In this document: positions 237 to 58,716 of the stretch, one piece after another | Position numbering within the stretch: the stretch's first letter is position 1 | How the letters are laid out: each line of letters opens with the position of its first letter | DNA from: Candidatus Melainabacteria bacterium | GTDB lineage: Bacteria > Cyanobacteriota > Vampirovibrionia > 2-02-FULL-35-15 | NCBI GenBank assembly: GCA_016201905.1 | Contig: JACQBQ010000024.1 | Coordinates: 52,919 to 116,918, forward strand | Direction: 5' to 3' | Length of the DNA stretch: 64,000 nt | Translations under genes and position numbers: made by a program | The notes under the pieces: generated by a model | Told to the model about the DNA's origin: nothing | What the model saw: only the letters and a program-made list of their open reading frames with translations | Database searches by the model: none

Positions 237-1496
237 ATGTCAAAACGATTATTTACATCAGAGTCAGTTACAGAAGGACATCCAGATAAACTTTGTGATC
301 AAATATCTGATGCAGTATTAGATGCTGCACTTGCTGGTGATACTAAAAGCCGTGTAGCCTGTGAAACATATGCTACAACAGGGTTAGTAGTTATAGGCGG
401 AGAAATTACTTCAAAAACACAGATTGATTATGATACCTTAGCCAGAAAAACTATAGAAGAAATCGGCTATGCAGGTCCTGATTCAGGTGGATTTGATGCA
501 CATACATGTGGGATTTTAGTTTGTGTAAAAGGACAATCACCAGATATTGCTCAGGGAGTTTCAACTGCTAAAGAACACAGAGATGAAGAATCAAGTGATG
601 CTGCAGATAAGTTAGGCGCCGGAGATCAAGGACTTATGTTTGGATTTGCATGTGATGAGACTCCAGAACTCATGCCACTTCCAATAAGCCTTGCTCAAAG
701 GCTTGCATTAAAGCTTTCTCAGGTTAGAAAAAGTGGTGTTCTTTCTTACCTAAGACCTGATGGTAAGACACAGGTTACTGTTGAATATGATGAACAAGGT
801 GCACCAAAAAGAATTGATACACTTGTAATTTCAACTCAGCATGCAGCAAAAATAAATGGAAAGACGGATAACTTTGATCTGCAAAAGTTTATTGAAGCTG
901 ATATGAAAGAGTTTGTAATTAAACCAGTAGTTGAGCAGCTCGGACACCTAATTGATAAAGATACAAAGTACTTTATTAATCCCTCAGGACGTTTTGTAAT
1001 CGGTGGACCACAAGGAGATGCTGGTTTAACCGGGAGAAAAATTATTGTAGACACTTATGGTGGCTATGCTCGTCACGGAGGTGGTGCATTTTCAGGTAAG
1101 GACCCTACAAAAGTAGACAGATCAGCATGTTATGCAGCCAGATACATTGCAAAAAATATTGTTAGTGCTGGTCTTGCAAAGCAATGTGAAGTTCAGGTTT
1201 CATATGCCATAGGTGTAGCAAAGCCAATATCTGTGAGCGTTTCAACATTTGGCACAGGAAAGATTAAAGACACAGCTCTTGGCGACATTATAAACCAGGT
1301 TTTTGATTTAAGACCGCTTGCAATAATCAAAAAACTAAATCTGCAAAACCTGCCTAAGTTAAACAATGGCATCTTTTACAGAAAGACAGCTGCTTATGGA
1401 CACTTTGGAAGACCTGACTTAAAGCTTCCATGGGAAGAGCTCGATAAGGTAAAAGAAATTCAAAAAGCAGCAAATGGATCTTTTGTTGTGGCATAA
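237..1496 (+). CDS. metK: S-adenosylmethionine synthetase
   Basis: 419 aa. N-terminal [25 protein letters not shown] matches MetK, as do the [16 protein letters not shown] motif and the protein length. Confidence 0.95.
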
Positions 1497-1528: not shown

Positions 1529-2152
1529 TTAAGACAAAGAAACAGGCACTAAACCCCTAATCGATTTTTTTTGTTTAATTAAATCCCTGATTTGACTACT
1601 TGAGATATTGATAGGTTTTGTGTGAACCAATGACCATTTGAGATTTTTAATCTTTGGAGCTTTTATATTTTTTGAAGGCCTTGGCAACACAAGAAATGTA
1701 ACCAGCTTAGCAAGCTGGATTGGTTTATTCCATGTATTTAATTTCTCAAATTCATCAGCGCCGATTAAGAAATATAGAATTATTTTGTCATTGCGAGCCA
1801 AAGGCGAAGCAAGCCTGATCATTTTGCGTGAATTCAATTGGGATTGCTTCGTCGTCCGCCCAATGTGGACTCCTTGCAATGACAGTATTGTATCAATCGT
1901 ATATGCTGGTTTTCTTTTTTTAATTTCAATGTCTAAAACCTTAAAATATTTTCTCCCTTTAATTGCTCTTTTTACAAGTTCGTATCTAAATTGTGCAGGA
2001 AATAATTTTTGCCTTGATTTATGTGGTGGAATACCACATGGAATAAAATAAACACAAGACAATTTATATTCTTTGCGCGCAGCTTCTGCCATTTTTAGAT
2101 GTCCAACGTGTATTGGATTAAATGTGCCACCGAAGATTCCGATTCGTTTCAT
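1529..2152 (-). CDS. nadD: Nicotinate-nucleotide adenylyltransferase carrying an in-frame insertion of a palindromic repeat element; start placed at MKRIGIFGGTFNPIHVGH
   Basis: GIFGGTFNPIHxGH nucleotidyltransferase motif and YTIDT...FLIGADEF match NadD. The track ORF runs to 2251 only because the repeat upstream reads through in frame. About 32 extra residues lie between YTIDT and LYFLIGAD compared with B. subtilis NadD. Confidence 0.85.
   Translation of the reverse strand: MKRIGIFGGTFNPIHVGHLKMAEAARKEYKLSCVYFIPCGIPPHKSRQKLFPAQFRYELVKRAIKGRKYFKVLDIEIKKRKPAYTIDTILSLQGVHIGRTTKQSQLNSRKMIRLASPLARNDKIILYFLIGADEFEKLNTWNKPIQLAKLVTFLVLPRPSKNIKAPKIKNLKWSLVHTKPINISSSQIRDLIKQKKSIRGLVPVSLS
1787..1883. 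mobile_element. Palindromic MITE-like repeat copy A (GTCATTGCGAG...CTTGCAATGAC), inserted in frame inside nadD
   Basis: Terminal inverted repeats and an internal inverted repeat (cgaagcaa.../...ttgcttcg) are shared with copies at 2156, 27795, 31037 and 58552. The nadD ORF stays open across it. Confidence 0.85.
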
Positions 2153-2155
2153 TAT

Positions 2156-2243
2156 GTCATTGCGAGCCAAAGGCGAAGCAATCCCGATCGTTTTGCGTGA
2201 ATTCACTCGGGATTGCTTCGTTGCTAACGCTCCTTGCAATGAC
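2156..2243. mobile_element. Palindromic MITE-like repeat copy B between the proA stop and the nadD start
   Basis: About 90% identical to copy A. It sits 4 bp upstream of the nadD ATG and produces a spurious in-frame N-terminal extension in the ORF track. Confidence 0.85.
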
Positions 2244-2247
2244 ATTA

Positions 2248-3513
2248 TCAATCCCTTATTTGCCCTTCACCAGTTACCAGATATTTATATGTCACTAATT
2301 GTTCTAGAGCAATAGGTCCGCGTGCATGTAATTTTTGTGTAGAGATTCCAATTTCAGAGCCAAAACCAAATTCTTCTCCATCAGTAAAGCGTGTGCTTGC
2401 ATTTACATAGACACATGCTGCATCAATTTCTTCCTGAAATTTCTTTGCATTACTTTTATCTTCTGTAATTATGGACTCTGAGTGTTTTGTTCCATATTTA
2501 TTTATATGTTCTATAGCTTCATCAAGCGAGTTTACCACTTTAACTGCGACCTTTAAATCTAAATATTCTTTATACCAATCATCTTCAGTAGCAGGTCTTG
2601 CACTTTTTATAAATTTTCTGGTTTTATCACAGCCAAAGATTTCTACATTTTTATTCATAAGAGCTAACTCAAGTCCAGGTAAAATATTTTGAGCAATGTT
2701 TTTATGAACTAAAATTGTTTCAATGGCATTGCAAACACCTGGTCTTTGTGTTTTTGCATTGATGGCTATATCCACTGCTATAATTTCTTTTGCACTTTCA
2801 TCTATGAATAAATGACAGGTGCCACCGCCTGCCCCAATTACCGGGATTTTTGAATGCTTTAAAACAAAATCTTTTAATTCTTCTCCGCCACGCGGAATTA
2901 CAAGATCTACATATTCTTTTGATTCAAGTATTTTTATAGTTTCATTCCGTTCTTTATTTGCAATGAACTGAACTATACTTAAGTCCAATGAGCTCTTTTC
3001 TAGAGCTTTGTAAATTACATCCACAATAGCCTGATTTGAATGCGTGGCATGCTGACTGCCGCGTAAAACTATTGCATTACCTGATTTAATGGCTAGAGAA
3101 GCTGCATCAGTAGTAACATTTGGTCTTGCCTCATAAATAACACATATTACGCCAAGAGGAACAGAAATCTTTTTTATATCCATTCCCTTTGAATGTTTCC
3201 AGGCAGCTAAAACTTTACCAATAGGATCTTTTTGAGCGATGACTTTTTGAATACTATCAGCCATGCTTTGCAATCTTTTTTCATTTAATAAAAGCCTGTC
3301 TAATAGAGCATTTGAGAGGTTGTTTTTCTTTCCTTCTTCAATATCTTTTTTATTTGCTGCTAAGATGATATCTTTTGATTTAATTAATTCACTGCTTATA
3401 AGTTCAAGTGCTTTATTTCTTTCATCGGATGCAGATTTTGCTAGTTTTCTTGAGGCAATCTTAGCAGCTTTGAGTTGGCTTATGGTATCTTTCAATGCAG
3501 TTTGAGAATTCAT
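2248..3513 (-). CDS. proA: Glutamate-5-semialdehyde dehydrogenase (gamma-glutamyl phosphate reductase)
   Basis: 421 aa. VIYEARPNVT, IPRGG, NAKTQRPGVCNAxETxLVHKNIA and YVNASTRFTDG align closely with E. coli ProA. The proA-nadD adjacency is common in bacteria. Confidence 0.93.
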   Translation of the reverse strand: MNSQTALKDTISQLKAAKIASRKLAKSASDERNKALELISSELIKSKDIILAANKKDIEEGKKNNLSNALLDRLLLNEKRLQSMADSIQKVIAQKDPIGKVLAAWKHSKGMDIKKISVPLGVICVIYEARPNVTTDAASLAIKSGNAIVLRGSQHATHSNQAIVDVIYKALEKSSLDLSIVQFIANKERNETIKILESKEYVDLVIPRGGEELKDFVLKHSKIPVIGAGGGTCHLFIDESAKEIIAVDIAINAKTQRPGVCNAIETILVHKNIAQNILPGLELALMNKNVEIFGCDKTRKFIKSARPATEDDWYKEYLDLKVAVKVVNSLDEAIEHINKYGTKHSESIITEDKSNAKKFQEEIDAACVYVNASTRFTDGEEFGFGSEIGISTQKLHARGPIALEQLVTYKYLVTGEGQIRD

Positions 3514-7001: not shown

Positions 7002-7045
7002 AAGTATTAATATAGCATTCAGGGGTATTAACTAAAATGTGACAC

Positions 7046-7088
7046 GTCATTGCGAGGAGTCTTGAAGAGACGACGAAGCAATCTTCCA
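7046..7088. mobile_element. Truncated half-copy C of the palindromic MITE-like repeat (left TIR plus first internal arm only)
   Basis: acGTCATTGCGAGgagtcttgaagagacgacgaagcaatc matches the left half of the other copies. The right TIR is absent. Confidence 0.7.
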
Positions 7089-7230
7089 ATAGTTTTAAAA
7101 GTAATAGCTTGTTATATAGGTCTTTCCATTCTTTAATTCTTTTGACCAAATCATTAGTAACACCTGTGTAAAGAACAGTTTTAGCTTTACTTGTGAGAAT
7201 TACGACTTTTTTACTTCTTAAACAAACTTA
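7089..7230 (-). pseudogene. GIY-YIG nuclease family small protein remnant with no canonical start, whose C-terminal part is replaced by repeat copy C
   Basis: The minus-strand translation VVILTSKAKTVLYTGVTNDLVKRIKEWK matches the GIY-YIG motif (YxYxL...LYxGxTxxLxxRxxxH). No ATG, GTG or TTG lies between the upstream stop and the motif. The frame runs straight into the repeat. Confidence 0.5.
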
Positions 7231-7937
7231 GTGCTCTCACTAATCAGCGCACCTATATTTTCTAGATATTTTTTTAATTCCATTCCTCTTACTTCTTTTT
7301 GTGTTTCAGTATCAAATGCATAGGCTCCTCTCAAATCGGCTCCTTTCAAGTTGGCTCCTTCTAAGTTGGTTCCTACCAAGTAGGCTCCGCTCAAGTTGGC
7401 TTCGTATAAGTGGGCTTCTATCAAGTTGGCTCCTCTCAAGTTGGTTCTTTCCAGGTTGGCTCCCCTTAAAGGATATTGAGCTTGATTAGAACCTAATGAG
7501 CTACTGATAGCCACTAATAATCTATCTAGGTTTATAAAATTATTATTTATTTTAATGTTTAAAGAAGTAAAATCTATTCCGGATAAATTAAGTGGTTCAT
7601 TTCCTTTTTGTGTTCTAAATGCATTTTCTATTTTATCTAGTACCATTAGTATCTCTGCATTGTTTGCATATTTATTTTTTATTCCAAATGGATCTAGAAA
7701 CCCTGTTTGTACCAAGGTTTTTTCTGCTCTTATTCTTCCTATAGCTTCTTGTGGAAGAATTACTCTTTTTACTTCTTCTAATACTTTATTTGCGTCATCT
7801 GTATTATTTACTTTTGTTCTAACTATTGAATTGAAATAAGAAAAAAACTCCTGACCTAGGCCAGGAGATAAGGTTTCTAAAGCTTTAAATGCTTTTTGTA
7901 CTTTCTCTATACCTGCTACATTTTGTACTAATGCCAT
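7218..7937 (-). CDS. Pentapeptide-repeat protein
   Basis: The C-terminal 70 aa are tandem A(N/D)LxG pentapeptides (RGANLERTNLRGANLIEAHLYEANLSGAYLVGTNLEGANLKGADLRGAY). Visible in DNA as repeated ggctcc(t/g)ctcaagttgg units at 7320-7470. Confidence 0.85.
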   Translation of the reverse strand: MALVQNVAGIEKVQKAFKALETLSPGLGQEFFSYFNSIVRTKVNNTDDANKVLEEVKRVILPQEAIGRIRAEKTLVQTGFLDPFGIKNKYANNAEILMVLDKIENAFRTQKGNEPLNLSGIDFTSLNIKINNNFINLDRLLVAISSSLGSNQAQYPLRGANLERTNLRGANLIEAHLYEANLSGAYLVGTNLEGANLKGADLRGAYAFDTETQKEVRGMELKKYLENIGALISESTKFV

Positions 7938-8487: not shown

Positions 8488-10059
8488 ATGTCGTTTTTTA
8501 ATAAAGAAAAAATAATAACTTCAATTCCAGTAAAAATCAAGGATGCAACACGGCTTGTAATTGCATTTCCAAACACTTATACAGTTGGCATGGCTAGTCT
8601 TGGTTACCAAAATGCCTGGAAACTATTTAATCAGAGTGAGAACATAGAAGTAACTAGATGGTTTACAGATATTCAAGAACAACAAAATAATACGCGTAGG
8701 CGGGGACGCGCATCCTCGCCTACGGATTATGTGGGCTTTTCTTTTAGCTGGGAGTTAGACTATAAAAATATTTTTTCAATGCTGGAAAAGAACAATATTC
8801 CGCTTCATGCTAAGGATAGAAGTGAAGATGATCCAATTGTATTTTGTGGTGGGCAGGTTCCAAATGCAAATCCTGAGCCATTTTGTGAAAACTTTGACTT
8901 TTTTCTAATCGGTGACCTTGAGGTTTTAGCTGATCAATTGGCAAGAAAAATAATTGAGGTTGAAAGTCTAAAGCGAGATGAAAAAATTAATGAACTATCA
9001 AAATTAGAAGGCGTTTACGTACCACATCACAGAGGTACATTTAAAAAACCAATTACAAAAAATGATTTATCCTATTCATCTATTCTTACCCCAAATAGTG
9101 TTTGGCCTAATATATTTTTATTAGAGGTGGCTAGAAGCTGTCCTGAGCTTTGCAGGTTTTGCCTTGCAAGTTATGGTTCTCTTCCATTTCGTACACCAGA
9201 TGTAAAAAAAAGCTTAATACCAGCAATTGATCTGGGATTAAAACATACAAATAAAATTGGTTTGCTTGGGGCTTCAGTTACACAACATCCACAATTTGAG
9301 GAATTGATAGATTATTTATTAATCAGAAATAGCGAGGTAACCTCGCCACTACAGGTACAAATTGCATCTGTTCGTGCAGACACTATTTCAAAAAATATTG
9401 CAGAAGGATTGTACAAGCTTGGAAGTAAGTCACTGACCATGGCTGTTGAAACAGGTTCTGAGAGACTGCGTGACATAATAAACAAAAAAGTAAGCAATGA
9501 AACTATATTTAACTCAATTCAAACTATTTATAATGCTGGTTTTAATTCAATTAAACTTTATGGCATGGTGGGATTGCCATATGAGACGAAGGATGATTTA
9601 AATAAAACTGTTGAGTTCCTAAAACAAATCAAACTAAACAATAAAACTAAAAAGCTTGTGTGGGGATGCTCAGTTTTTGTACCAAAAGCACAGACACCGT
9701 TTCAGTGGTTTGGGGTCGATAAAAATGCACCCCATAAATTAAAGTCTCTAAGTAAAGAACTTCATCAAATAGGAATTGATTTTAGACCTGAAAGCTACCG
9801 TTGGACAACTATACAGGCACTTATATCAAGAGGAGATAAAAGTATAAATAAGATTCTGGAAGATGCATACAGATATGGAAATACACTTGGCAGTTTTAAC
9901 AAAGCAATAAAAGAAAATAAAGCCGAGATTGACTCAAACCACTTTATTTTTCAAAATTGGGATACAAAGATAAAACTTCCGTGGGAAAATGTACAAGGGT
10001 ATTTAAATAAAGAAACAGTAAAAGAGCACGCAAAGAAAGTTTCTATCGTAAATGTTTGA
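8488..10059 (+). CDS. Radical SAM domain protein
   Basis: 523 aa. The CPELCRFC motif (CxxxCxxC) sits in a TIM-barrel-like region. Subfamily not assigned. Confidence 0.75.
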   Translation: MSFFNKEKIITSIPVKIKDATRLVIAFPNTYTVGMASLGYQNAWKLFNQSENIEVTRWFTDIQEQQNNTRRRGRASSPTDYVGFSFSWELDYKNIFSMLEKNNIPLHAKDRSEDDPIVFCGGQVPNANPEPFCENFDFFLIGDLEVLADQLARKIIEVESLKRDEKINELSKLEGVYVPHHRGTFKKPITKNDLSYSSILTPNSVWPNIFLLEVARSCPELCRFCLASYGSLPFRTPDVKKSLIPAIDLGLKHTNKIGLLGASVTQHPQFEELIDYLLIRNSEVTSPLQVQIASVRADTISKNIAEGLYKLGSKSLTMAVETGSERLRDIINKKVSNETIFNSIQTIYNAGFNSIKLYGMVGLPYETKDDLNKTVEFLKQIKLNNKTKKLVWGCSVFVPKAQTPFQWFGVDKNAPHKLKSLSKELHQIGIDFRPESYRWTTIQALISRGDKSINKILEDAYRYGNTLGSFNKAIKENKAEIDSNHFIFQNWDTKIKLPWENVQGYLNKETVKEHAKKVSIVNV

Positions 10060-11539
10060 TCAATTAACAGAAAAATTCCAAGAAATCTTTAAGAGTCTTC
10101 GTGGCAAGTCTGTTATTAACGAAGAAAATATTGAAGCTAGTATCCTTGAGGTAAAAAGAGCGTTAATTGACGCTGATGTTAGTTTAAAAGCAATTAAAAC
10201 CTTTACAAACAAAGTACGTGAAAAAGCAATTGGTGAAGCAATTATAAAAGGTATAACACCAGCTCAGCAGTTTATAAAAATAATAAACGATGAACTCGTT
10301 GCTCTTCTTGGCGGTAAAGACGTTGCAGTGCAACGTCTCAACATTGAGGAAAAATCTAAACCAAGTATTATCCTAATGCTTGGTTTACAGGGAGCTGGAA
10401 AAACCACTACCTGTGCAAAACTTGCAAGCCTTTTAAAAAAGAAAGGCAGAAATCCACTGCTTGTAGCATTGGATTTAAAAAGGCCAGCTGCAATAGAACA
10501 ATTGAAGATACTGGGTGAACAAATTGGTGTGTTGGTATATGGCATCTCAGAAGATGTAAGGGCTTACCATGGTAAGCCCCGACAGATAGCGCAAGACGCC
10601 ATTAACTACGCAAAACAAAATAATCACGACGTTGTGATCTTAGACAGTGCCGGCAGATTGCAAATTGATACTGAACTTATGGCAGAGCTATTATTAATCG
10701 ACAGAACTATACAGCCAACTGAAAAGCTTCTTGTAGTTGACTCAATGATTGGACAGGAAGCAGCAAATGTAGGAGCAGCATTTAATACACAGATCGGGGT
10801 TACAGGTATTGTCTTAACTAAGTTAGATGGTGATGCTCGTGGCGGAGCTGCTCTTTCTATCGTAGAAGAAATTCAAAAACCAATAAAACTTATTGGCACT
10901 GGAGAAAAGATTGACGACTTTCAGGAATTTTACCCGGAGCGCATGGCAAGCAGAATACTTGGCATGGGTGATGTCTTAACATTGGTAGAAAAAGCACAGG
11001 AAAAAATCCAGGAAGATGTAGCTGCGTTTCATGAAACGCAGCTACGAGGCGACTTTAATTTCGAAACTTTTCTGCAAGCACAAAACATGATGGGAAAATT
11101 AGGTAGCTTCTCAGGAGTATTTAACATGATGGGAATGGGAGGCATGCTTAACCAGCTTGGAATAAACATGAATAAAGAAACCCAGGAAAAAATGCTTTCT
11201 GAGAATGAAGTTAAAACAAAAAAACAAAAAGCCATGATTCAAAGCATGACAGGGAAAGAAAGAAGAAATCCAAATATTTTAACCCCAGCAAGAAATAGGA
11301 GAATTGCACATGGGTCTGGTCATAAAGAAAAAGATGTAGAAAAGCTAATAAGTGAGTTTAAGCAGATGAAAAAATTAATGGACCAATTAAAACCTTTTAT
11401 GCAAATGTTTCAGGGTAAAAACATGTCTCAGGACATGTTGAAAAACATGATGCCAGGCTCAATTGGAAAAATGCAAAACCCTTTTATGAATCCGCAAAGC
11501 AACATGTTAAAAGGTTTTAAGCCAAAGAAGCAAAAGTAA
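10052..11539 (+). CDS. ffh: Signal recognition particle protein Ffh
   Basis: 495 aa. GLQGAGKTTTCAKLA P-loop, DSAGR, TKLDGDARGGAALS and a Met-rich M domain at the C terminus. Overlaps the upstream gene by 8 nt. Confidence 0.95.
   Translation: MFDQLTEKFQEIFKSLRGKSVINEENIEASILEVKRALIDADVSLKAIKTFTNKVREKAIGEAIIKGITPAQQFIKIINDELVALLGGKDVAVQRLNIEEKSKPSIILMLGLQGAGKTTTCAKLASLLKKKGRNPLLVALDLKRPAAIEQLKILGEQIGVLVYGISEDVRAYHGKPRQIAQDAINYAKQNNHDVVILDSAGRLQIDTELMAELLLIDRTIQPTEKLLVVDSMIGQEAANVGAAFNTQIGVTGIVLTKLDGDARGGAALSIVEEIQKPIKLIGTGEKIDDFQEFYPERMASRILGMGDVLTLVEKAQEKIQEDVAAFHETQLRGDFNFETFLQAQNMMGKLGSFSGVFNMMGMGGMLNQLGINMNKETQEKMLSENEVKTKKQKAMIQSMTGKERRNPNILTPARNRRIAHGSGHKEKDVEKLISEFKQMKKLMDQLKPFMQMFQGKNMSQDMLKNMMPGSIGKMQNPFMNPQSNMLKGFKPKKQK
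10556..10580. repeat. 25-nt palindrome-containing segment GTAAGGGCTTACCATGGTAAGCCCC inside ffh, encoding VRAYHGKP
   Basis: The identical 25-mer recurs at 14380-14404 in an unrelated gene in the same reading frame. Its core GGGCTTACCATGGTAAGCCC is a perfect 20-bp palindrome. Confidence 0.8.
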
Positions 11540-13875: not shown

Positions 13876-14607
13876 ATGGAAATTTTTACAGGAAAAAACA
13901 AGGAACTTAGCGATAAAAAAGCCTTTGAAATTATTAAAACCCAGGTTTTAAAAAAACCTGATTCACTAATCGGCATTGCAGTCGGTAAAACTACTGACGG
14001 ATTATATAAATTAATCTCCAAAGACGCAGTCAAATCCACAAAAAAGTGGAGAAAGATAAAGCTTTTTCAAATTGATGAAAATCTTGGAGCTCATCCAAGC
14101 TCACCGGTTAGCTTTAACTTTGAAATTAGAAAAGAATTAAAACAGTTATTAAATATTCTAAATTCAAAAAATATATTCTTAATGGATGGTACAGAGAAAC
14201 CCAAAAAAACAATTAAAGAAGCCTACAAATTTATAAAATCAAATGGTGGTATAGATTTAATCATTCTTGGAATTGGTCCAGAATATGATCCCCATGTTGC
14301 TTACAACACCACTGGTAAATCAGCACTAAATTCAAGGATGAGAGTAGTGGATCTTCATCCAAAAGTAATAGAAAAACTGGTAAGGGCTTACCATGGTAAG
14401 CCCCAACGGAAAATAAAAGGCATTACTCTTGGCATTAAAGATATCCTTGAAACAAAAAAAGCGCTACTAATTGCTTATGGAAAAGAAAAGGCAAAATCAT
14501 TTAAGCTTATTCTAAAGAAAAAAGTAAATATGAAAAAAGGATCAGTTACGGCACTTCTGTTACATAAGAATCTTGAAATTGTAGTTGATAAGGATGTAGT
14601 AAAATAG
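13876..14607 (+). CDS. Glucosamine-6-phosphate deaminase / 6-phosphogluconolactonase family protein (NagB-like)
   Basis: 243 aa. IGIAVGKTTDGLY...FQIDENLG...GIDLIILGIGPEYDPHVAYN pattern typical of the NagB/Pgl superfamily. Divergent from nanE. Confidence 0.7.
   Translation: MEIFTGKNKELSDKKAFEIIKTQVLKKPDSLIGIAVGKTTDGLYKLISKDAVKSTKKWRKIKLFQIDENLGAHPSSPVSFNFEIRKELKQLLNILNSKNIFLMDGTEKPKKTIKEAYKFIKSNGGIDLIILGIGPEYDPHVAYNTTGKSALNSRMRVVDLHPKVIEKLVRAYHGKPQRKIKGITLGIKDILETKKALLIAYGKEKAKSFKLILKKKVNMKKGSVTALLLHKNLEIVVDKDVVK
14380..14404. repeat. Second copy of the 25-nt segment GTAAGGGCTTACCATGGTAAGCCCC, inside the nagB-like gene, encoding VRAYHGKP
   Basis: Exact 25/25 identity with 10556-10580, in the same frame. 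Confidence 0.8.
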
Positions 14608-20605: not shown

Positions 20606-23353
20606 TTAGCGACTTAATGGAATCTCTATATCCTTTGAAAAGGACATTCCTTGAGTTATCTGTGTAACAGTTAAGCTTATTTTTTCCGGGAAACCATTAG
20701 GAAATAATTCTGCTATCTCTTTTATTTTTTCTAGTTTTTTTATAGGCAGTACAATTAAATGTACCTTTTTACTTGAATCCTTTGCTGTCAAAGGAAATTT
20801 ATTTGGTGCTATAACTAAAGCCTTTTTAGGTAAATCAGTAGTTATATTAATCAAACTATCTTCCAGACTAGTGTTAAAAAGATTTTGATCAAAACTAACA
20901 ATTAAAAAACTTTTGGCAGGTTTTTTCTGTAAAAGTGTTAATCCACTTAAAGCTGGCCCTTCTATAGCTAAAGAAAAACTTACAGGCTCTCCAGATGAAG
21001 TATTGCCACCTGTAGAACTACTTGTTGAAGAGGAACTTACAGTATTTTTATTATTTGAAGCATCAATGCCTGCATTGCTTGGAGGTTCAATTTGTTTTCT
21101 TGTAAGCGTCAGTGAATCACCGACTATAGGTAATCTAAAAATCCCTCCGCCATTTGTAGCTGCATAAACAGCTGATCCATCAGGTGTAACTGTAAGTCCT
21201 CTTACCTCACGAATTAAAAGTCCATTACTAAATGATTGCCATGTCTGGCCATCATCACCTGAAACATAAAAACCAGTAACATTTCCAGCTGCATAAACTT
21301 GATGTGTGCTAGATATCGGATTAAAAATAATTGAAACAATATTGTCATTGAGATGATTTTCATTACTTAATACAGGCTGCCAGGTACTACCTGCATCACT
21401 TGATCTAAAAATTCGCCCGTCAGAACTTCCTACAAGAATAACTTGAGTGTTTGCTGGACAAACTGAGACTGAATGAAAGGATTTTACATCACCCAGTCCA
21501 TTGTTTATTTGTGTCCATGTTTCTCCACCATCTGTACTTTTAATTATGCCTGAATCATTTGTAGCAGCATAGACAATTTTTTCATCTGTTGGACTAACAT
21601 CACAAGACCAAGTATTTTTAAATCCTGATATTCCTGTTTGCTTATTTATCCACGTCATGCCACCATCTGTAGACTTAAACACTCCCCATCCAATTGAATC
21701 TACAGCATCATGAAAAAGAGATTTTTTAACACATGTAGCAAATGCAGTACTTGGGTTTGATTTTGCCCATTTTATGTCTGTAAAAACAATCTCACCATCT
21801 AAGCCAGTACTTGACGGATGAAGTGCATAATCTTCAGGGAAAAGCATGAAAACAGTTCTCCAGCTCATGCCACCATCAGTGCTAAGAAAGATTGAACTCA
21901 TAGCATTTTGGCTATCACCAAGAAGAACTTTACTACTATCAGCAGGGTGTGGCACAATTGCTTGAAGCTCATCTAATGCTACATCTCCAAGACCAACAGG
22001 CAGCCAGTTTACTCCTTTGTCTTCACTTAAAAAGACACCTGATCTTGAAGTAGCAAAAACTTTATTACCATCTGGGCTTACAGCTACATCTCTTGTTTCA
22101 GAACCAGAATACCCGAAAGCATTTGTAACCCATGTTTTCCCGCCATCTGTAGTTTTAAAAACTCCGCCTATATAACTGTCTACATATACTGTATTTTCAT
22201 CATTTGGATCAACTGCAATATCAATTGGATGGCCAGGATTAGAACCAAGTGGTCCAAACCCAGTCTCTGTCCAAGTCATACCTCCATCCTTTGATTTAAA
22301 AAATATTCCAAATGCACCAGCATAAATTACATTTGGATTTGTAGGGCTTATGCCAAGTGCTGAGTATAGCTGTGGGGAGCCATTGCTACGCTGTCTCTTT
22401 ACCTCAATCCATGTCATTCCACTATCACGAGTTACAATAATTGCTCCATCCTGATTTTCTATATCAGTATCAAACTGTGGAATCATTCCTGTTGTTCCCC
22501 AAATAGTATTTGGATTCATTGGATCAAATTTTATATTTGTAACATAAAGATTTCTTATTCCATTATTTATCTGGGCCCAAGTGCTACCACTATCTGTACT
22601 TTTATACACACCTTCAAGTTTTTCTAGCTGCTGTCTATCAAAAAATCCGCTTGCTACATAAGTAGTATTTGGATTATTTGGATCAATAATTACATCCTTA
22701 AATAAATTCCCCCCACTTAAAACCTGTGCCCAGTTTTCCCCGCCATCAGTTGTTCTATAAAGGATTCCATGTGTTCTTTGAAAGGCCCCCATAAAAGGGC
22801 CAATTTCTTCTAAGTCGCCCGATGCAAAAACTGTATTAGAATCTCCTGGCTTTACTGCAAGCCCTCTAATTTCAACCTCTTCACCGCTTGGTAAGCCATT
22901 GTCTTTATGCTGCCATGTTGCCCCGCCATCAGTTGACAGAAAAACACCCATTGCATTTTTTACACCACACCATATTCGCTGTGGATTATTTGGATCAATA
23001 GTAGTAACAAAAACAGGGATTGCATCTCCTGATTCACCTGCACGCGAATCAATCCCTTGAGTGCTTTCATCCCACGTTAATCCGCGATCACCTGAAATAT
23101 GAATACCAGCAAACGAATCAGTAACAATAATTTTATTGGAATCATTAGGACTAAACCTTATTGTGTAACCTTGCCCACCAAATGGACCATTTAATTTCTG
23201 CCATGGCATTAAAAGGACTTGGTACTTATCAATCAATTCATCTGGTGTTGCAAAATCAGAATATTCTTTAGAGATAATTTTATTCTGTAGAAAGAAAAAT
23301 ATTAAGATCACAAACAAAAAGATAAGAGAAAATCTAAGCTTATAAGTTTTCAT
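20606..23353 (-). CDS. Secreted BNR/Asp-box repeat protein (multi-bladed beta-propeller; Ycf48/sortilin-like)
   Basis: 915 aa with a signal peptide. At least 12 SxDxGxTW Asp-box repeats (STDGGATW, TTDGGENW, STDSGSTW and others), then a Ser/Thr-rich linker and a C-terminal domain. Confidence 0.8.
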   Translation of the reverse strand: MKTYKLRFSLIFLFVILIFFFLQNKIISKEYSDFATPDELIDKYQVLLMPWQKLNGPFGGQGYTIRFSPNDSNKIIVTDSFAGIHISGDRGLTWDESTQGIDSRAGESGDAIPVFVTTIDPNNPQRIWCGVKNAMGVFLSTDGGATWQHKDNGLPSGEEVEIRGLAVKPGDSNTVFASGDLEEIGPFMGAFQRTHGILYRTTDGGENWAQVLSGGNLFKDVIIDPNNPNTTYVASGFFDRQQLEKLEGVYKSTDSGSTWAQINNGIRNLYVTNIKFDPMNPNTIWGTTGMIPQFDTDIENQDGAIIVTRDSGMTWIEVKRQRSNGSPQLYSALGISPTNPNVIYAGAFGIFFKSKDGGMTWTETGFGPLGSNPGHPIDIAVDPNDENTVYVDSYIGGVFKTTDGGKTWVTNAFGYSGSETRDVAVSPDGNKVFATSRSGVFLSEDKGVNWLPVGLGDVALDELQAIVPHPADSSKVLLGDSQNAMSSIFLSTDGGMSWRTVFMLFPEDYALHPSSTGLDGEIVFTDIKWAKSNPSTAFATCVKKSLFHDAVDSIGWGVFKSTDGGMTWINKQTGISGFKNTWSCDVSPTDEKIVYAATNDSGIIKSTDGGETWTQINNGLGDVKSFHSVSVCPANTQVILVGSSDGRIFRSSDAGSTWQPVLSNENHLNDNIVSIIFNPISSTHQVYAAGNVTGFYVSGDDGQTWQSFSNGLLIREVRGLTVTPDGSAVYAATNGGGIFRLPIVGDSLTLTRKQIEPPSNAGIDASNNKNTVSSSSTSSSTGGNTSSGEPVSFSLAIEGPALSGLTLLQKKPAKSFLIVSFDQNLFNTSLEDSLINITTDLPKKALVIAPNKFPLTAKDSSKKVHLIVLPIKKLEKIKEIAELFPNGFPEKISLTVTQITQGMSFSKDIEIPLSR

Positions 23354-27783: not shown

Positions 27784-27794
27784 TAACTTTACAC

Positions 27795-27884
27795 GTCATT
27801 GCGAGAAGCGTTAGCGACGAAGCAATCTCAACAACGTGAGTGAGATTGCCACGTCGTCCGCCTAGGCGGACTTCTCGCAATGAC
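27795..27884. mobile_element. Palindromic MITE-like repeat copy D (hom-aspS intergenic)
   Basis: ACGTCATTGCGAG...CTCGCAATGACGT termini with an internal inverted repeat gacgaagcaatctca/tgagattgccacgtcgtc. Confidence 0.85.
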
Positions 27885-27913
27885 GTTATACGGTAAAATA
27901 AATAATAAATCTA

Positions 27914-30204: not shown

Positions 30205-30633
30205 TTGTGTCAAAGGCACGTTAGGAAATTGAAAAAAAACAAATACAAAAAATATAAACATTGCCTCATCTTAATTGCGCATGGAAGTAAAGAGCTCCAA
30301 TGGCGCAGGCCTTTTGAAAGACTCATCGGTAAATTAAAAAGAGAGCTGCCAGGAGATTACATTTCCATTGCTTACATAGAGTCACTAAAGCCATCGCTTA
30401 GTGAGGTAATGAAGAACTTATCTAATAAAAAAAGTGCAAACTACATAAAATTATTACCTCTTTTTATGGCAGCTGGCTCTCATATAAATCGTGATATAAA
30501 GGAACTTGTTTCTAGAGCTAGAAAGAAATCACCAAAATTAAAAATTGAAGTTCTGCCACCAATTGGCGAACATCCTAAAATAAGCTCAGTAATTTGTGAA
30601 ATAATAAAAGGGTATTTAAATCATGTTAGCTAA
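30205..30633 (+). CDS. CbiX/SirB-like small sirohydrochlorin chelatase domain protein
   Basis: 142 aa. [10 protein letters not shown]...[14 protein letters not shown] resembles the short CbiX(S) chelatase fold, which has a His near the N terminus. Confidence 0.5.
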
Positions 30634-31504
30634 AAGAATTATTCCTTGTTTAGACGTAAAAGATAGGCGTGTCGTCAAAGGCACAAAGTTTCTAGATTTA
30701 AAAGATGCTGGTGATCCTGTAGAGCTTGCAAAGTTCTATAACAAAGAAGGAGCTGATGAGCTTTGTTTTTTAGATATTACAGCAAGTCACGAAGAAAGAA
30801 AAACACTTATTGAAATGGTAGAAGCTGTTGCTCGTGAGGTTTTTATACCATTTACTGTCGGTGGCGGTATTAGCACTACTGAACAAATGAAGAGTATCTT
30901 ACGCGCTGGGGCAGATAAAATCACTATTAATACTGCTGCTATAAAAAATCCAAGACTGATTACAGAAGGAGCCAAAATATTTGGCTCACAGTGTATTGTC
31001 CTAGCTATCGATGCAAAACAGGAGTCCTACGTTAGCACGTCATTGCGAGGAGAGGAGCGACCCGCTTCGCCCGCAAAGCGAGGCGAGCGAAGCAATCTCG
31101 AAAACGCTTATGATATTGCCACGCCTTCTTTGAAGGCTCGCAATGACGTAAAGCGATGGACTGTTTATATAAAAGGTGGGAGAGAAAATACTAATATAGA
31201 TGCTATTGAATGGGCTAAAAAAGCTGTTACCTTAGGCGCTGGTGAAATATTACTTACCAGCATGGACGCAGATGGTACAAAAGCAGGTTATGATATTGAG
31301 CTTACAAAAAAAATCGTTGAAGCTGTAAATGTTCCAGTAATAGCTTCTGGTGGTGCTGGAAAAATTGATGATGTAGTTAATGTATTTAAAAAAACAAACT
31401 GTGATGCTGCACTGTTAGCTTCAATACTCCACTTTAAAGATATTTCAATAAAAGAAATAAAAAATAAATTAAAAGAAGAGTTGGTTTCTGTAAGACTAAA
31501 CTAA
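30623..31504 (+). CDS. hisF: Imidazole glycerol phosphate synthase cyclase subunit HisF, carrying an in-frame insertion of a palindromic repeat element
   Basis: [41 protein letters not shown] and IASGGAG match HisF. About 40 extra residues ([44 protein letters not shown]) lie between AIDAK and the W-containing strand. Confidence 0.92.
31037..31149. mobile_element. Palindromic MITE-like repeat copy F inserted in frame inside hisF
   Basis: ACGTCATTGCGAGG...GCTCGCAATGACGT termini and a GC-rich internal palindrome. The hisF ORF stays open across it. Confidence 0.85.
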
Positions 31505-40645: not shown

Positions 40646-42031
40646 ATGAAGAAGGTAGCAATTATAGGATGTGGTCCTGGTGGGTATTACGCAGCAGTGC
40701 GTCTTGCTTCTGCTGGTTTAGATGTGACATTAATAGATAAACAATATGCAGGTGGCACTTGTTTAAATGTGGGCTGTATTCCAACCAAAGTGCTTTTAGA
40801 TCATCTAAGCCTCTATGAGCATTTTATTGAATCAAGCACGAAGAAAAAAATATTCTCAGTTTCTGATGCCAAGTTAAATCTAGAAAACTTAAGAACATTT
40901 CAGTCTGATGTAATTAAACAACTTCAAGATGGACTAAATAAATTATTTAAGAAAAAGAAAATAAATTTTATCCATGGCGAAGCAAAATTACTCTCCGAGA
41001 AAAAAGTTCAGATAAACTCTAAAGAAATAATAGAAGCAGATGAAATAATAATAGCTACAGGATCTAAGCCAAGAACAATACCAGGATTTCAATTTGATAA
41101 GAAAGTTATTGTATCCAGTGATGATATCTGGAATGTACCTTCTCTGCCACAAAAGCTCTTGGTTATTGGCTCCGGGCCAATTGGTATTGAGTTTGCACGA
41201 ATATTTAATGTATTAGGTTCAAATGTAACAGTTGTTGAGATCCAGGAAAAAATCTGTCCAATTCTAGATCTTGAAATATCTGAAAATTTAATTAGAAGTC
41301 TAAAGCGAAGAAATATTACAGTAAAGCCAAACTTTGCTTCAAAACTTCTTGAAAAGAAAGAAAAAACTGCTCTTATTGAGTTTATAAGTACAAGTGAATC
41401 AAAAAAAGAAAATGGGGAATATGATCAAGTCTTAATAGCAGTGGGTAGAAAGCCAAATGCTGATAATTTAGGGCTTGAAAATGTGGGTGTGGAGTTAGAG
41501 CCACAAGGGTTTGTAAAGGTAAATCAATATCTGCAAACAAATATTAAAAATATCTGGGCAATCGGTGATGTTACAAATTATCCCCAACTTGCTCATACTG
41601 CAAGCTTTCAGGGAAGAGTAGTAGCTGAAAATATTTTAGGGAAAAAGAAAGCATTTCAAGGTGATTTTATCCCATCCTGTATTTTTGGATATCCTGAAAT
41701 TGCTTTTGTAGGTGCTACAGAGGAATCTCTAAAATTAAAAAATATCGAGTACAAAGTTGGGAAGTTTTTGTTTTTAGCCAGTGGCAAAGCTAAAGCCAGT
41801 GGATTAACCGAGGGTCTTGTCAAAATCCTTATGGATAAAGTGTCAAAAAAGGTTTTAGGGGCACATATAATTGGACCTGAAGCATCAAATCTTATTCATG
41901 AATTGGTAGTTGCAATGCAGAACAATTTAACAGTAGACCAGATCACATCGTCTATTCATGCACACCCCACATATTCTGAAGTAGTGCTTGAAGCATTGGA
42001 AGACTGTCTGGGAGAAGCAGTTCATGTGTAA
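40646..42031 (+). CDS. lpdA: Dihydrolipoyl dehydrogenase
   Basis: 461 aa. FAD motif GCGPGGY, redox-active disulfide GGTCLNVGCIPTK and a C-terminal HAHPT dimerisation motif. Confidence 0.93.
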   Translation: MKKVAIIGCGPGGYYAAVRLASAGLDVTLIDKQYAGGTCLNVGCIPTKVLLDHLSLYEHFIESSTKKKIFSVSDAKLNLENLRTFQSDVIKQLQDGLNKLFKKKKINFIHGEAKLLSEKKVQINSKEIIEADEIIIATGSKPRTIPGFQFDKKVIVSSDDIWNVPSLPQKLLVIGSGPIGIEFARIFNVLGSNVTVVEIQEKICPILDLEISENLIRSLKRRNITVKPNFASKLLEKKEKTALIEFISTSESKKENGEYDQVLIAVGRKPNADNLGLENVGVELEPQGFVKVNQYLQTNIKNIWAIGDVTNYPQLAHTASFQGRVVAENILGKKKAFQGDFIPSCIFGYPEIAFVGATEESLKLKNIEYKVGKFLFLASGKAKASGLTEGLVKILMDKVSKKVLGAHIIGPEASNLIHELVVAMQNNLTVDQITSSIHAHPTYSEVVLEALEDCLGEAVHV

Positions 42032-43125
42032 TGATTAACAGAAAAGAAATCAAAAAAATCATAATCTTTCGCTACCGTTTTATAGGTGATACAGTCTTGA
42101 CCATTCCTTTTATTAAAAATGTAAAAGAGTATTTCCCAGATGCACAAATTGATGTACTAGTTTCGCCAAATAGTGGAGAGCTAATTGAAGGGAACCCAGA
42201 TGTAAATAAAATCATTTATTTTGACAATTCAAAGTTTCATAAATATGAAAATATTCAAGAGGCTGGATCGCACGATCCAGCCTCCTTGTATTGCAATTCC
42301 TTTTTAGGTTGTGTAAAAGTTCTTAAAAGAGAAAATTATGAGCTTGCTTTTGTCTTAAAACGTTCATTTTCAAGTGCTTTCTTAGCTTTTTTAAGTAGGG
42401 CAAAATATAGAGTTGGTTTTAATACAGAGTTTAGATCTTTTTTATTAACACATAAAATTAAATATGATAAGAGTATTCATGAGATAGATAATTTTTTAAA
42501 TTGTTTGAAACCGTTATTAGATATAACTCCACAAAGACACATGCCTAAAATTTATACAACACAAAAAGAGGAAATAAAAGCCAATGGTTTTTTAGTCAGA
42601 CTTGATCGCTTTAAACCAAAAGTTTTAATTCATGCTAGTAGTGCGCACCCTTATAAAATGTGGCCAAAGAGATACTTTGCAAAGCTTATGGATTATTTAT
42701 ATGATGAGTTTGGAGCACAATTCGTTTTTACTGGAGCAAAAATTGATAAAGAAGCTTATGAAAAAATACTTGGGTGGTGTGAAAATAAAAATAAATTTAA
42801 AATACTTGACCTCTTGGGGCTGACTTCTATTAGAGAGTGCTATTCGATTTATAAAGGACTTGATCTAGCAGTATGTGTTGATTCTGGTAATGCTCATATT
42901 TCAGCAGCAAGTGGTATTCCAACATATGTTTTATATGGACCTACAAGACCAGAGCGCTGGCTGCCGCTTGGTAAAAGCGTTTTTCCACTCCGATTAAATC
43001 AGTTATTACCGTGTCAGCCTTGTGATGTAAAAGTTGAGTGTTCTCATCTAAGCTGCATGAAACTGTTAAGTCCAGAATTTATATTTAGTAACTTAAAAAA
43101 CGGCAAAATTAAAGTAACTACTTAG
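42031..43125 (+). CDS. Glycosyltransferase family 9 (LPS heptosyltransferase-like)
   Basis: 364 aa. The N-terminal RYRFIGDTVLTIPFIKNVKEYFPDAQIDVLV is typical of RfaC/RfaF-type GT9 enzymes. Confidence 0.8.
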   Translation: MINRKEIKKIIIFRYRFIGDTVLTIPFIKNVKEYFPDAQIDVLVSPNSGELIEGNPDVNKIIYFDNSKFHKYENIQEAGSHDPASLYCNSFLGCVKVLKRENYELAFVLKRSFSSAFLAFLSRAKYRVGFNTEFRSFLLTHKIKYDKSIHEIDNFLNCLKPLLDITPQRHMPKIYTTQKEEIKANGFLVRLDRFKPKVLIHASSAHPYKMWPKRYFAKLMDYLYDEFGAQFVFTGAKIDKEAYEKILGWCENKNKFKILDLLGLTSIRECYSIYKGLDLAVCVDSGNAHISAASGIPTYVLYGPTRPERWLPLGKSVFPLRLNQLLPCQPCDVKVECSHLSCMKLLSPEFIFSNLKNGKIKVTT

Positions 43126-44454: not shown

Positions 44455-44527
<73 letters not shown>

Positions 44528-44666
44528 AATTCTTCCACAAGAATGTGAGTGATTAATGGTGTGCTAATAAAGCGAACCTTGTTCCAATTTATTTGGACAA
44601 GGTGAGCGGTATTTGCAAGGCTGGTTCGAGGAGCAACGTCACCGCAGAACCAGCTGTTAGAGATAC

Positions 44667-56995: not shown

Positions 56996-58543
56996 TTATT
57001 TTAAAAAGTTTATCATTGTATGAAAAGCGGCTTTTGTTTTTTCTTTTATACTGGACTTAAAAACTATTCCTATCAAATCCGAATATGACCTTGCTTTGCC
57101 TTTATATGGATACCACCAGAAACTTTTTGGGTGTAGCTTTGGAATAAAGCCAAGATCAATGCTTATGTGTTTGGTTCTTACAAAATCATAAATTGCAGAA
57201 CCACCATAACCACTGTCCTTATAACCCTGCCATGGACAGGCTGGATGTGCCTGTAAAAACAAAGAATCATTAACCCAGACTGTGCCGCAGTTTAATTTAT
57301 TTGCAATATTTTTTACATTTCCTGTTTCACCTGTCCAGATGCTACTTGCAAGACCATATCTTGTGTCATTAGCTAGTCTTATTGCTTCTTCAATGCTCTC
57401 AAACTTCATAATAGGAATAACAGGTCCAAAAGTTTCTTCTGTCATTATTTTCATTGAATGATTTACATTGCTTAAAACTGTAGGCTCAAAGAAAAAGCCT
57501 GAGCCTGGAATTCTTTTGCCGCCCGTATGGAGTCTGGCACCTTTATTTAAGGCATCTTTTATATGCTCTTCTATTTTTTCTACTTGCTCCTTGTCTATGA
57601 GTGGCCCTACATCAATTTCGTCATCTATTCCATTGCCTATTTTTAACTCTTTTACAAGACTTGTAATTTTATCTATAAAATCATTATAGATTTCTGATTC
57701 CACATAAACCCTTTCAATAGATGCACAGGCTTGGCCACAATTTGATATTGCTCCCCATAAAACTCCTTCACATGCATAGTCTAAGTTTGTGTTTTTGAAA
57801 ACTATTGCAGGATCTTTTCCGCCAAGCTCAAGGCTTACAGGCAGTAGTTTTTTTGCGCAAGATTCAGCAATTTTCTTGCCGATTTCTACAGACCCTGTAA
57901 AAATAACTTTGTCAATTCCTGAGCTGATTAATACCTCTGCAGCTTCACTACCACCATATACAATGTTTGCAACACCTTGTGGCAGGGCTGCTTCAAGCAA
58001 GATCTCATAAATTAATTTTCCAACTAGCGATACTTTGCTTGACGGTTTAAAAATAAAAGTATTGCCAGCCAGCAATGTTTTTGTAATTGCTGACATAGGT
58101 AAATAAAAAGGATAGTTCCATGGCTCTATAATAGCCATTACACCGTACGGCTCATAAGAAAGAAAACTTTTCTTAGTAGGATAAAGTTTGCCAAGAGAAA
58201 TACTTTTTTCATTCAATAACTCATGGCCTTTTTTAATAAAATATTCCATGATCTGTAAACATGAAGCAATTTCAGTCAGATATGACTCAGAGAGTGGCTT
58301 ACCAGTGTTTTTTGTAATTATTTCGGCTATCTTATCTTTGTCTTTAATTATAAGTTCATATATTTTTTTTAAGTAATCAATCCTTTTATCTACGGTCATA
58401 CTACTCCATAGTAAAAAAGACTCTTTTGCTCTTTGAATTATTTCTTTAATCTCAGTTTCGCTTGTAGCTTTAGCAGTAAAGATTTCCTCACCTGTTGCAG
58501 GGTTAGTAACTTTAATTAAGTTTTCTTTTATTGTAGCTGGCAT
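56996..58543 (-). CDS. Aldehyde dehydrogenase family protein (start placed at MPATIKE; the ORF reads into the repeat up to 58558)
   Basis: ELGGKDPAIVF, the catalytic Cys in NCGQAC and the EETFGPV motif. The five N-terminal residues in the track (MTCKA) are encoded by repeat copy E. Confidence 0.88.
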   Translation of the reverse strand: MPATIKENLIKVTNPATGEEIFTAKATSETEIKEIIQRAKESFLLWSSMTVDKRIDYLKKIYELIIKDKDKIAEIITKNTGKPLSESYLTEIASCLQIMEYFIKKGHELLNEKSISLGKLYPTKKSFLSYEPYGVMAIIEPWNYPFYLPMSAITKTLLAGNTFIFKPSSKVSLVGKLIYEILLEAALPQGVANIVYGGSEAAEVLISSGIDKVIFTGSVEIGKKIAESCAKKLLPVSLELGGKDPAIVFKNTNLDYACEGVLWGAISNCGQACASIERVYVESEIYNDFIDKITSLVKELKIGNGIDDEIDVGPLIDKEQVEKIEEHIKDALNKGARLHTGGKRIPGSGFFFEPTVLSNVNHSMKIMTEETFGPVIPIMKFESIEEAIRLANDTRYGLASSIWTGETGNVKNIANKLNCGTVWVNDSLFLQAHPACPWQGYKDSGYGGSAIYDFVRTKHISIDLGFIPKLHPKSFWWYPYKGKARSYSDLIGIVFKSSIKEKTKAAFHTMINFLK

Positions 58544-58551
58544 GGCTTTAC

Positions 58552-58640
58552 ACGTCATTGCGAGGAGGTACGATGTACCGACGTGGCAATCTCTAAAACG
58601 TTATTGAGATTGCTTCGTCGCTAACGCTCCTCGCAATGAC
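58552..58640. mobile_element. Palindromic MITE-like repeat copy E abutting the 5' end of the aldehyde dehydrogenase gene
   Basis: ACGTCATTGCGAGG...CCTCGCAATGAC termini. Internal palindrome GTACGATGTACCGACGTGGCAATCTC.../...GAGATTGCTTCGTCG. Confidence 0.85.
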
Positions 58641-58716
58641 ATACTACACTATTGTAGAATATAAGCTTGTGCATTGGTAGTAAGTCATAATTTAATAATG
58701 AAAGCAGCTAATCAAC

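Follow-up and report, generated by a model that had tools for sequence, protein, structure and literature searches.

How can a GC-rich palindromic repeat sit inside the coding frame of an essential gene, with a second copy at the start of the same gene, and leave the enzyme in working order? The question is raised by nadD, the gene for nicotinate-nucleotide adenylyltransferase, in a 64,000-nt stretch of a Candidatus Melainabacteria genome (GenBank assembly GCA_016201905.1, contig JACQBQ010000024.1, positions 52,919 to 116,918), referred to below as the window. A reading of the letters alone (the original prediction) had placed one repeat copy (copy A) in frame within nadD and another (copy B) in front of its start codon. 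[quoted passage not shown] One copy would have entered nadD before the sampled species diverged, at the end of the helix after YTIDT, and would since have stayed in frame, its translation forming an unstructured loop on the surface that the enzyme can do without. Most work on palindromic selfish DNA read in frame concerns Rickettsia, where it was first described; here it is found in free-living, AT-rich Melainabacteria, in a family shared across phyla. The locus has a moderate general appeal, as it combines a conserved site with modular insert sizes, an apparent concerted evolution of A and B, and a repeat that has likely been turned into a protein N-terminus.

The open reading frame (ORF) 1529..2251 on the minus strand was confirmed, and copy A lies within it in the coding frame, as the original prediction had it. 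The insert of about 32 residues that had been placed between the YTIDT and FLIGADEF segments comes to 33 codons, encodes LSLQGVHIGRTTKQSQLNSRKMIRLASPLARND, and follows YTIDTI and precedes KIILYFLIGADEF; the predicted NadD contains the stretches YTIDTILSLQGVHIGR and ...PLARNDKIILYF there (coordinates of all features are collected in Table 1). Copies A and B have the same orientation and are 369 bp apart from start to start (about 370 bp had been estimated). Their identity is 92% in an ungapped alignment of the first 71 nt and about 91% overall, and they share a 26-mer that is expected 0 times in shuffled sequence. The RNA of copy B folds at -45.3 kcal/mol (z=-8.4) and that of copy A at -33 kcal/mol (z=-2.4); the weaker folding of copy A is due to decay of its inner stem.

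The 207-aa product read from the native ATG matches Pfam CTP_transf_like (PF01467, E=4.8e-22). Every residue that is invariant among 38 NadD homologues is present in it, including those of GGTFNPIHVGH and ISSSQIR: G8, G9, F11, N12, P13, H15, G17 and H18 of the N-terminal GxFxPxHxGH signature are all invariant and present, and ISSSQIR corresponds to the C-terminal ISSTxIR motif. The AlphaFold2 (AF2) model has a mean predicted local distance difference test score (pLDDT) of 82.8, with a core at about 90 and values below 50 only at residues 96-120, inside the insert. Its closest match in PDB is the Bacillus subtilis NadD structure 1kaq (template modelling (TM) score 0.77/0.84), and the TM scores against 1kaq and 3e27 range from 0.77 to 0.85. 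In the model the insert falls between helix 86-92 and strand 124-131. The alignment to 1kam breaks at query residues 92/125, which puts the insert between residues 97 and 105 of B. subtilis NadD. The model thus shows copy A as a loop without order that links a helix to a strand, the rest of the NadD fold being predicted with confidence. The loop precedes a strand of the Rossmann-like sheet and, judging from the fold class, would face away from the ligand site. Taken jointly with the age and frame of copy A described next, we consider it very probable that nadD encodes a working enzyme with a tolerated insert.

We compared the proA-nadD-...-metK loci of related Melainabacteria (handles L001 and so on). 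Copy A begins at the identical nucleotide of the identical nadD codon in every related locus that carries it. All measured lengths (21, 90, 96, 99 and 150 nt) are multiples of 3. The insert is open in the nadD frame in all loci, with a constant element frame (SLRG...ARND); the other two forward frames nearly always contain stops, one to four each. In L092 the copy is shortened at its 3' end, and L009 keeps a decayed trace. Among 120 NadD homologue clusters, 10 contain the full insert and about eight contain remnants; more distant NadDs have short loops and none of it. The position and distribution argue that the insertion is old and very probably predates the divergence of the sampled species. 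Copy A appears to be dispensable, since it shrinks and decays in relatives. The 21-nt palindrome of L001 was also considered as a proto-site that existed before the insertion; a deletion remnant is the better candidate, because the 21 nt match the element ends at synonymous positions too. The relatives form a natural series at one codon (a 21-nt stem-only form, 90 nt, and 150 nt with extra hairpins) together with the paired copy at the gene start. Such a series can be used to ask how an element enters and persists in essential genes, what loop size is tolerated, and how a repeat turns into a new N-terminus.

Three other accounts of copy A were weighed against these data. Removal or skipping of the insert, by RNA excision, in the manner of an intein, or by ribosomal bypassing as in T4 gene 60 and the mitochondrial byp elements, might be thought of since strong hairpins typify bypassed and excised segments and the element is GC-rich within an AT-rich gene. 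However, a length in multiples of 3 and freedom from stops in the host frame only are seen in every A copy (21-150 nt), every full-length B copy and the copy in hisF described below; a segment that is spliced out or bypassed need not keep frame and length, and therefore copy A is most simply taken as read by the ribosome. No match to an intron or ribozyme was found in Rfam, and 33 residues are far too few for an intein, so we regard removal as very improbable. Even less credible is that nadD is a pseudogene or the insert an assembly artefact. The source is indeed a metagenome-assembled genome, and palindromic repeats can confuse assemblers; yet the identical insert is found at the identical codon in independent assemblies from NCBI, ENA, JGI and Logan, the ORF is intact with every invariant NadD residue, and the proA-nadD-metK order is conserved. 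The third account, in which the peptide has been co-opted for a function, for instance as a loop for regulation or interaction, and is maintained by selection acting on the protein, would explain why it persists at one site across species whose ProA and MetK differ by 10-18%, and why the frame is always kept. It is nevertheless unlikely: the peptide sequence is free to vary wherever its residues are not dictated by the DNA palindrome (as they are in SLRG... and ...ARND), it is down to 7 residues in L001 and decayed in L009, AF2 predicts no structure for it, and unrelated palindromes occupy the same loop in other relatives. We return to the tolerated, translated copy A as the favoured interpretation, with the caveat that the samples are small (5 B copies and 6-7 A copies) and related by descent.

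Copy B occupies 90 of the 95 nt of the proA-nadD spacer (2153-2247) and so fills it, as had been stated. It starts 3 nt past the proA stop and ends 2 nt (TA) before ATG 2152; the gap of 4 bp originally given has to be corrected accordingly. The frame is open from TTG 2251-2249, which overlaps the proA stop, and from ATG 2245 through copy B into nadD. ATG 2245-2243 is composed of one flanking A and the first two bases (TG) of the element. The public NadD record (225 aa) begins at GTG 2206, within the loop of copy B, and several homologues are likewise extended into the element by gene callers (MSLRGA...). The nadD start is thus called inside a repeat, and SLRGA...ARND-type peptides inflate the counts of hypothetical proteins.

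A comparison of the proA-nadD junction in related genomes had been suggested as a check. Copy B was found at the same position in five lineages (the window, L090, L091, L007 and L092) and was lacking in L001, L004, L005 and L009, whose proA and nadD either overlap or have 5 nt between them. The element end in four of the five (the window, L090, L091 and L007) is followed by 2 nt, the start-codon position and then AAA/CAA-CGN; in L092 copy B is shortened and directly abuts a GTG start. The four full B copies are 90, 108, 93 and 120 nt long, all multiples of 3. The nadD frame is open in all five B copies and the other frames contain stops. Each B copy opens with (A/G)TG-TCA-TTG, a start to which the first bases of the element itself contribute and which lies 2-7 nt past the proA stop. 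In L007 the sequence AAA GCT CAA CGA ATA GGT stands where the others have the start codon plus AAA-CGN, and there is no start codon between copy B and the GGTFNP motif. NadD of L007 must therefore begin inside the element or at its head.

We lean towards the view that copy B is translated as an N-terminal extension of NadD from its own 5' ATG. Copy B lies precisely in the gap that separates the proA stop from the nadD start and would be co-transcribed with both genes; no promoter-like or terminator-like site was detected between proA and nadD. Ribosomes that end proA would restart at ATG 2245, at the 5' end of the element, so that initiation on B would be coupled to proA termination, and read-through of B would give NadD about 31 extra N-terminal residues (MSLQGALATKQ...). 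Without such read-through, the sequence immediately before the native ATG would be buried in the stable B hairpin. The N-terminal extension, first proposed from the open frame of the window, is strengthened by the lengths in multiples of 3, by the frame open only for nadD in 5/5 lineages and by L007 with no native start; translation of B and its coupling to proA termination are the parts that we infer. An influence of the hairpin on nadD initiation (-45 kcal/mol, 2 nt before the ATG) is plausible.

A distinctly possible alternative is that copy B is an untranslated intercistronic hairpin that reduces or gates the translation of nadD, or that acts on the proA-nadD mRNA by stabilising or processing it, with NadD starting at ATG 2152. 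The open frame and the length in multiples of 3 would then have been inherited from A by gene conversion. The hairpin is stable and ends just ahead of the ATG; at 90 nt, the B copy of the window is as long as the A copy of L004, which is the likely ancestral length; and REPs at the 5' ends of ORFs have often been judged non-coding (PMC3733652). Several points weigh in the same direction, against translation of B: the native start after B is still present in the window, L090, L091 and L092 (ATG, TTG, ATG and GTG, respectively); the coding-like traits of B could have come passively from A by conversion; and the Shine-Dalgarno evidence is weak, metK and proA of the window having no clear Shine-Dalgarno sequences. 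An argument for the upstream ATG based on a Shine-Dalgarno sequence was dropped for the reason that other genes of the window lack clear ones. What tips us towards translation is the missing start codon of L007, the persistence of the open nadD frame in every B copy despite lineage-specific indels (the other frames and the intergenic copies being full of stops), and the ATG or GTG at the 5' end of each B copy just after the proA stop.

The two copies appear to have exchanged sequence. Copy B of the window is 96% identical to the A copy of L004, 93% to the B copy of L090 and 91% to copy A of the window; compared with the other B copies its identity is only 73-84% (79-84% for L007 and L091). The A and B copies of L007 both contain the GC hairpin module GCCGCGCCAAAGGCGGGC, which is missing from the A copy of L005, the closest host to L007 (90.5% ProA+MetK identity). 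In L091 the two copies share a right-arm hairpin found nowhere else, and in L092 they share the central loop. The similarity of the copies follows the lineage and not the site, with features shared between A and B in four lineages. Copy B is probably old, its position being common to these lineages, and the likeness of A and B within a genome is therefore best explained by gene conversion, which we consider fairly likely. Under this proposal A and B, as direct repeats 369 bp apart, would evolve in concert within each lineage. Recombination or deletion between the copies had been suggested at the outset; the comparison lends support to an exchange, and no A-B deletion was seen in the compared loci. 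Such a deletion would remove the HxGH active-site motif. Two points count against the overall explanation: the host tree is built from ProA+MetK identities only, and several losses of B (L001, L004, L005 and L009) must be assumed.

The element is built, in order, of (C/T)GTCATTGCGAG(G/A)AG, a short arm of variable sequence, then CGAAGCAATC(T/C)C, a loop, G(A/G)GATTGC..CG, another variable arm and CTCGCAATGAC(G/A). A pattern search for the GTCATTGCGAG / CTCGCAATGAC termini, together with a covariance model (R1) built from ten element copies, identified five full elements of 89-111 nt in the window. The five have in common an invariant 12-bp outer stem and an inner stem whose changes are compensated (GCAATC(T/C)C / G(A/G)GATTGC), and they carry one or two small variable hairpin arms in addition. 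For intact copies the folding energy is about -45 to -54 kcal/mol (z around -8 to -9). Their GC content is about 49-57%, compared with 35% for the window. A search of Rfam gave no match to the element at gathering or E-value thresholds, and Pfam has no family for its peptide.

One of the five lies within hisF, where it adds about 37 residues in the AIDAK...W loop and splits the Pfam His_biosynth match into two stretches. HisF is 293 aa long here, and mostly 250-260 aa among the listed homologues. The insert is present in none of 12 aligned homologues, three of which have other inserts in the same loop. This copy, found only here among the aligned homologues, shows that in-frame insertion is a habit of the element family. 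The two remaining full copies are intergenic (92 and 89 nt) and contain stops in 11 of 12 frames. At the copy next to purB, the first ATG (58558) of the aldehyde dehydrogenase ORF 56996..58558 (minus strand) belongs to the element terminus GCAATGAC and precedes a second ATG (MPATIKEN) by five codons, and the annotated start of this ORF may be an element artefact.

Further copies were found in relatives, at 8648-8748 of L090 and at 8587-8679 and 14926-15060 of L100; two of these lie at the same place just upstream of proA, where the window has none. The element architecture was also seen in one Desulfobacterota and one Nitrospiraceae locus among about 1.2 Mb of unrelated genomes, a background made up of contigs from a NadD profile search that, among the matches listed, contained only NadDs of 30-40% identity from other phyla and none from Melainabacteria. 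A search of plasmids gave only two hits, both in Methylocystis and to the left arm; one of them, on a Methylocystis rosea plasmid, shows the left arm to be conserved across phyla. A HMMER search with the 33-aa element peptide returned three hits, all spurious ORFs over element arrays in GC-rich organisms, where the arrays give rise to spurious SLRGALATKQS...ARND proteins. The occurrences in Desulfobacterota, in Nitrospiraceae, on the Methylocystis plasmid and in the GC-rich arrays therefore make this a cross-phylum family, an identity that the original prediction had missed. No match was found in a phage collection searched with the element, a word-based search with the element peptides found nothing, and a metagenome scan gave two close loci with one and the same sequence. 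None of ten small ORFs checked in the window proved to be a transposase or RAYT (REP-associated tyrosine transposase), so we infer mobility solely from the distribution of copies. The filled and empty sites of hisF are too different to define a target-site duplication. No clear target-site duplication emerged from the filled/empty comparison of hisF and the proA-nadD junction.

Among the closest known systems are the RPEs (Ogata et al., 2000, via PMC10969869), described as in-frame repeats in housekeeping genes that are judged compatible with the fold and function of the protein. RPEs are dispersed palindromic repeats of about 100-150 bp, found in frame in unrelated housekeeping genes and at N-termini too, each adding a peptide of about 30-50 residues (PMC10969869). 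The window likewise contains a dispersed repeat, with five full copies of 89-111 nt in 64 kb, and the insertions in nadD and hisF are in frame and leave the ORF unbroken. The element differs from the RPEs in that its host is a member of the Melainabacteria and its family extends to other phyla, that one and the same site is conserved between species while the insert changes size in modules, and that a second copy lies at the start of the same gene.

CGTC-tagged REPs (Di Nocera et al., 2013) carry the tag CGTC (often TGTC, also CCTC), have a stem starting from AT and occur mostly as head-to-head dimers; within ORFs the dimers encode 20-33 residues, and CGTC-1 is RPE-6 in R. conorii (PMC3733652). 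The copies studied here all begin with (C/T)GTC-ATTGC..., the same tag followed by a stem starting with AT, and two ATTGC...GCAAT units with outward tags may be read in the element, possibly a head-to-head dimer. The R. conorii peptide SFLRKQES...LDSRFRGND (PMC3733652) may be compared with SLRGALATKQS...ASPLARND here (29-33 residues); the CGTC-1/RPE-6 peptides resemble those of the element at the termini only, in a comparison made by peptides alone. The stem is ATTGCGAG and not ATTCC(C/T)GC, and GTCATTGC was not found in the supplementary files of PMC3733652. Unlike the CGTC-tagged REPs, with a stem of 8-9 bp and a loop of 4-5 nt, the element has an outer stem of 8-12 bp that spans 76-150 nt and long loops with extra variable hairpins. 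Read as a monomer, it has only a 5-bp ATTGC/GCAAT stem with a loop of 14-30 nt; a simple hairpin is formed by the 21-nt version of L001 alone (9-bp stem, 3-nt loop). The position of the CCA tail is taken by CTC or CCC, paired in the inner stem. CGTC REPs have not been reported from Cyanobacteria or their relatives (PMC3733652). By analogy, the element appears to work like the RPEs and in-ORF REPs, and its stem, loop and tail set it apart from the CGTC REPs.

The element also has the traits of a MITE, namely terminal inverted repeats, a size within the range of 70-300 bp and no coding capacity of its own. As with QMITE1 of Coxiella, ERIC, BOX and the Anabaena MITEs, it is small and non-coding, with inverted-repeat ends and hairpins, and such elements are sometimes open through host ORFs (PMC10969869). 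It differs from them in that neither a cognate insertion sequence (IS) with the same ends nor a target-site duplication was found here. The coding palindromes of Nematomorpha mitochondria are similar in being inserts tolerated in essential genes (PMC6649704), in an unrelated organelle system. Mitochondrial byp elements differ in that the ribosome skips them, whereas the frame statistics given above favour read-through. A literature search with the core motif returned only primer sequences, and one on Melainabacteria and palindromic elements found nothing relevant.

Relatives with no TGTC-type element have other palindromes at the A site of nadD, perfect ones of the GTAG...CTAC type. Those of L100 and L101 are both perfect and differ by three fully compensated pairs. 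The peptide pattern VG......SL suggests that many more NadD homologues contain loop palindromes. In the window there are eight perfect GC-rich palindromes of 20-38 nt, compared with about 0.25 in simulations, and five of them are inside ORFs. The 20-mer palindrome GGGCTTACCATGGTAAGCCC occurs twice in the window and encodes VRAYHGKP, a motif that is also present in the NadD loop of other genomes. Since both the window and the relatives have palindromes in coding sequence, carrying them is a general habit of these genomes.

A more speculative possibility, which we put forward tentatively, is that the NadD loop after YTIDT and the proA-nadD junction are standing landing pads, where a tolerated palindrome is repeatedly overwritten by the current variant of the genome. 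Hairpin-targeted insertion or gene conversion may be the route. The occurrence of the TGTC-type composite in some species and of perfect 28-30 nt GTAG...CTAC palindromes in others, whose stems differ between genomes by fully compensated changes, would fit, as would the concerted evolution of A and B and the element that takes the place of the native nadD start codon in L007. If true, an active homogenising process would operate inside essential coding sequence, and a selfish hairpin could become a new protein N-terminus.

A second in-frame palindrome site was observed in nadD after PPHKS, in L009 (1924-1947) and in L092/L093. The L009 palindrome, AAAGACATGCCGCGGCATGTCTTT, is perfect, 24 nt long and encodes NTKTCRGMS; similar inserts are present in the homologues P0003, P0012, P0015 and P0016.

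Table 1. Positions of the element copies, palindromes and genes discussed in the text. R1, score against the covariance model.
Feature	Locus	Position	Strand	Length	Remarks
nadD from native ATG 2152	window	1529..2152	-	207 aa	nicotinate-nucleotide adenylyltransferase
proA	window	2248..3513	-		gamma-glutamyl phosphate reductase; upstream of nadD, in the same putative transcription unit; stop TGA 2250-2248
In-frame upstream extension of nadD ORF	window	2153..2251	-		possible starts TTG 2251-2249, ATG 2245-2243, GTG 2206
Copy A, nested palindrome in nadD frame	window	1786..1884	-	99 nt	33 codons, residues about 92-124; R1 64.9 bits
Copy B, proA-nadD spacer	window	2155..2244	-	90 nt	nadD frame open; R1 85.2 bits
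Copy A	L004			90 nt	in nadD
Copy A	L005			99 nt	in nadD
Copy A	L007			150 nt	in nadD
Copy A	L091			96 nt	in nadD
Copy A remnant	L001			21 nt	outer stem only, TGTCATTGC-AGA-GCAATGACG; encodes LSLQSND
Element inside hisF (30623..31504, +)	window	31038..31148	+	111 nt	37 codons, in frame; R1 53 bits
Element between hom and aspS	window	27794..27885	+	92 nt	stops in 5/6 frames; R1 78.8 bits
Element between aldehyde dehydrogenase gene and purB	window	58553..58641	-	89 nt	stops in 6/6 frames; R1 89.3 bits
Half copy, left arm only	window	7045..7092	+		about 45 nt upstream of alcohol dehydrogenase gene start; missed by R1
Element with decayed 3' end	L102, Methylocystis rosea plasmid pGW6_2	173236-173330			34-nt left arm 94% identical
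nadD loop palindrome after YT[IV]DT	L100	10304-10331			GTAGGGACCAGTCGCGACTGGTCCCTAC
nadD loop palindrome after YT[IV]DT	L101	4959-4988			TGTAGGGATTGGTCGCGACCAATCCCTACA
nadD loop palindrome after YT[IV]DT	L090	10401-10420			GTAAGGGCTTGCCATGGCAAGCCCCAAC
Palindromes	window	10318-10338, 10560-10579, 11018-11045			in ORF 10052..11539
Palindrome	window	14384-14403			in ORF 13876..14607
Palindrome	window	42259-42284			in ORF 42031..43125
Palindrome	window	55815-55852			intergenic

The window starts with metK (237..1496, plus strand), followed by nadD and proA on the minus strand, and the order proA-nadD-...-metK is kept at all related loci. Some features elsewhere in the window were recorded as well. 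The 3' 58 nt of the tRNA-Phe(GAA) gene at 44455-44527 recur 190 bp after it at 97% identity (44653-44717); this copy is not called as a tRNA by ARAGORN and looks like the leftover of an attachment-site duplication. The 239-aa ORF 7218..7937 (minus strand) contains a 15-nt periodic repeat at 7318-7469, which encodes a pentapeptide-repeat stretch (ANLxGAxLxG...). Several diverged internal direct repeats (families D2-D5 and D12) were found in the 915-aa ORF 20606..23353 (minus strand), suggesting a repeated domain.

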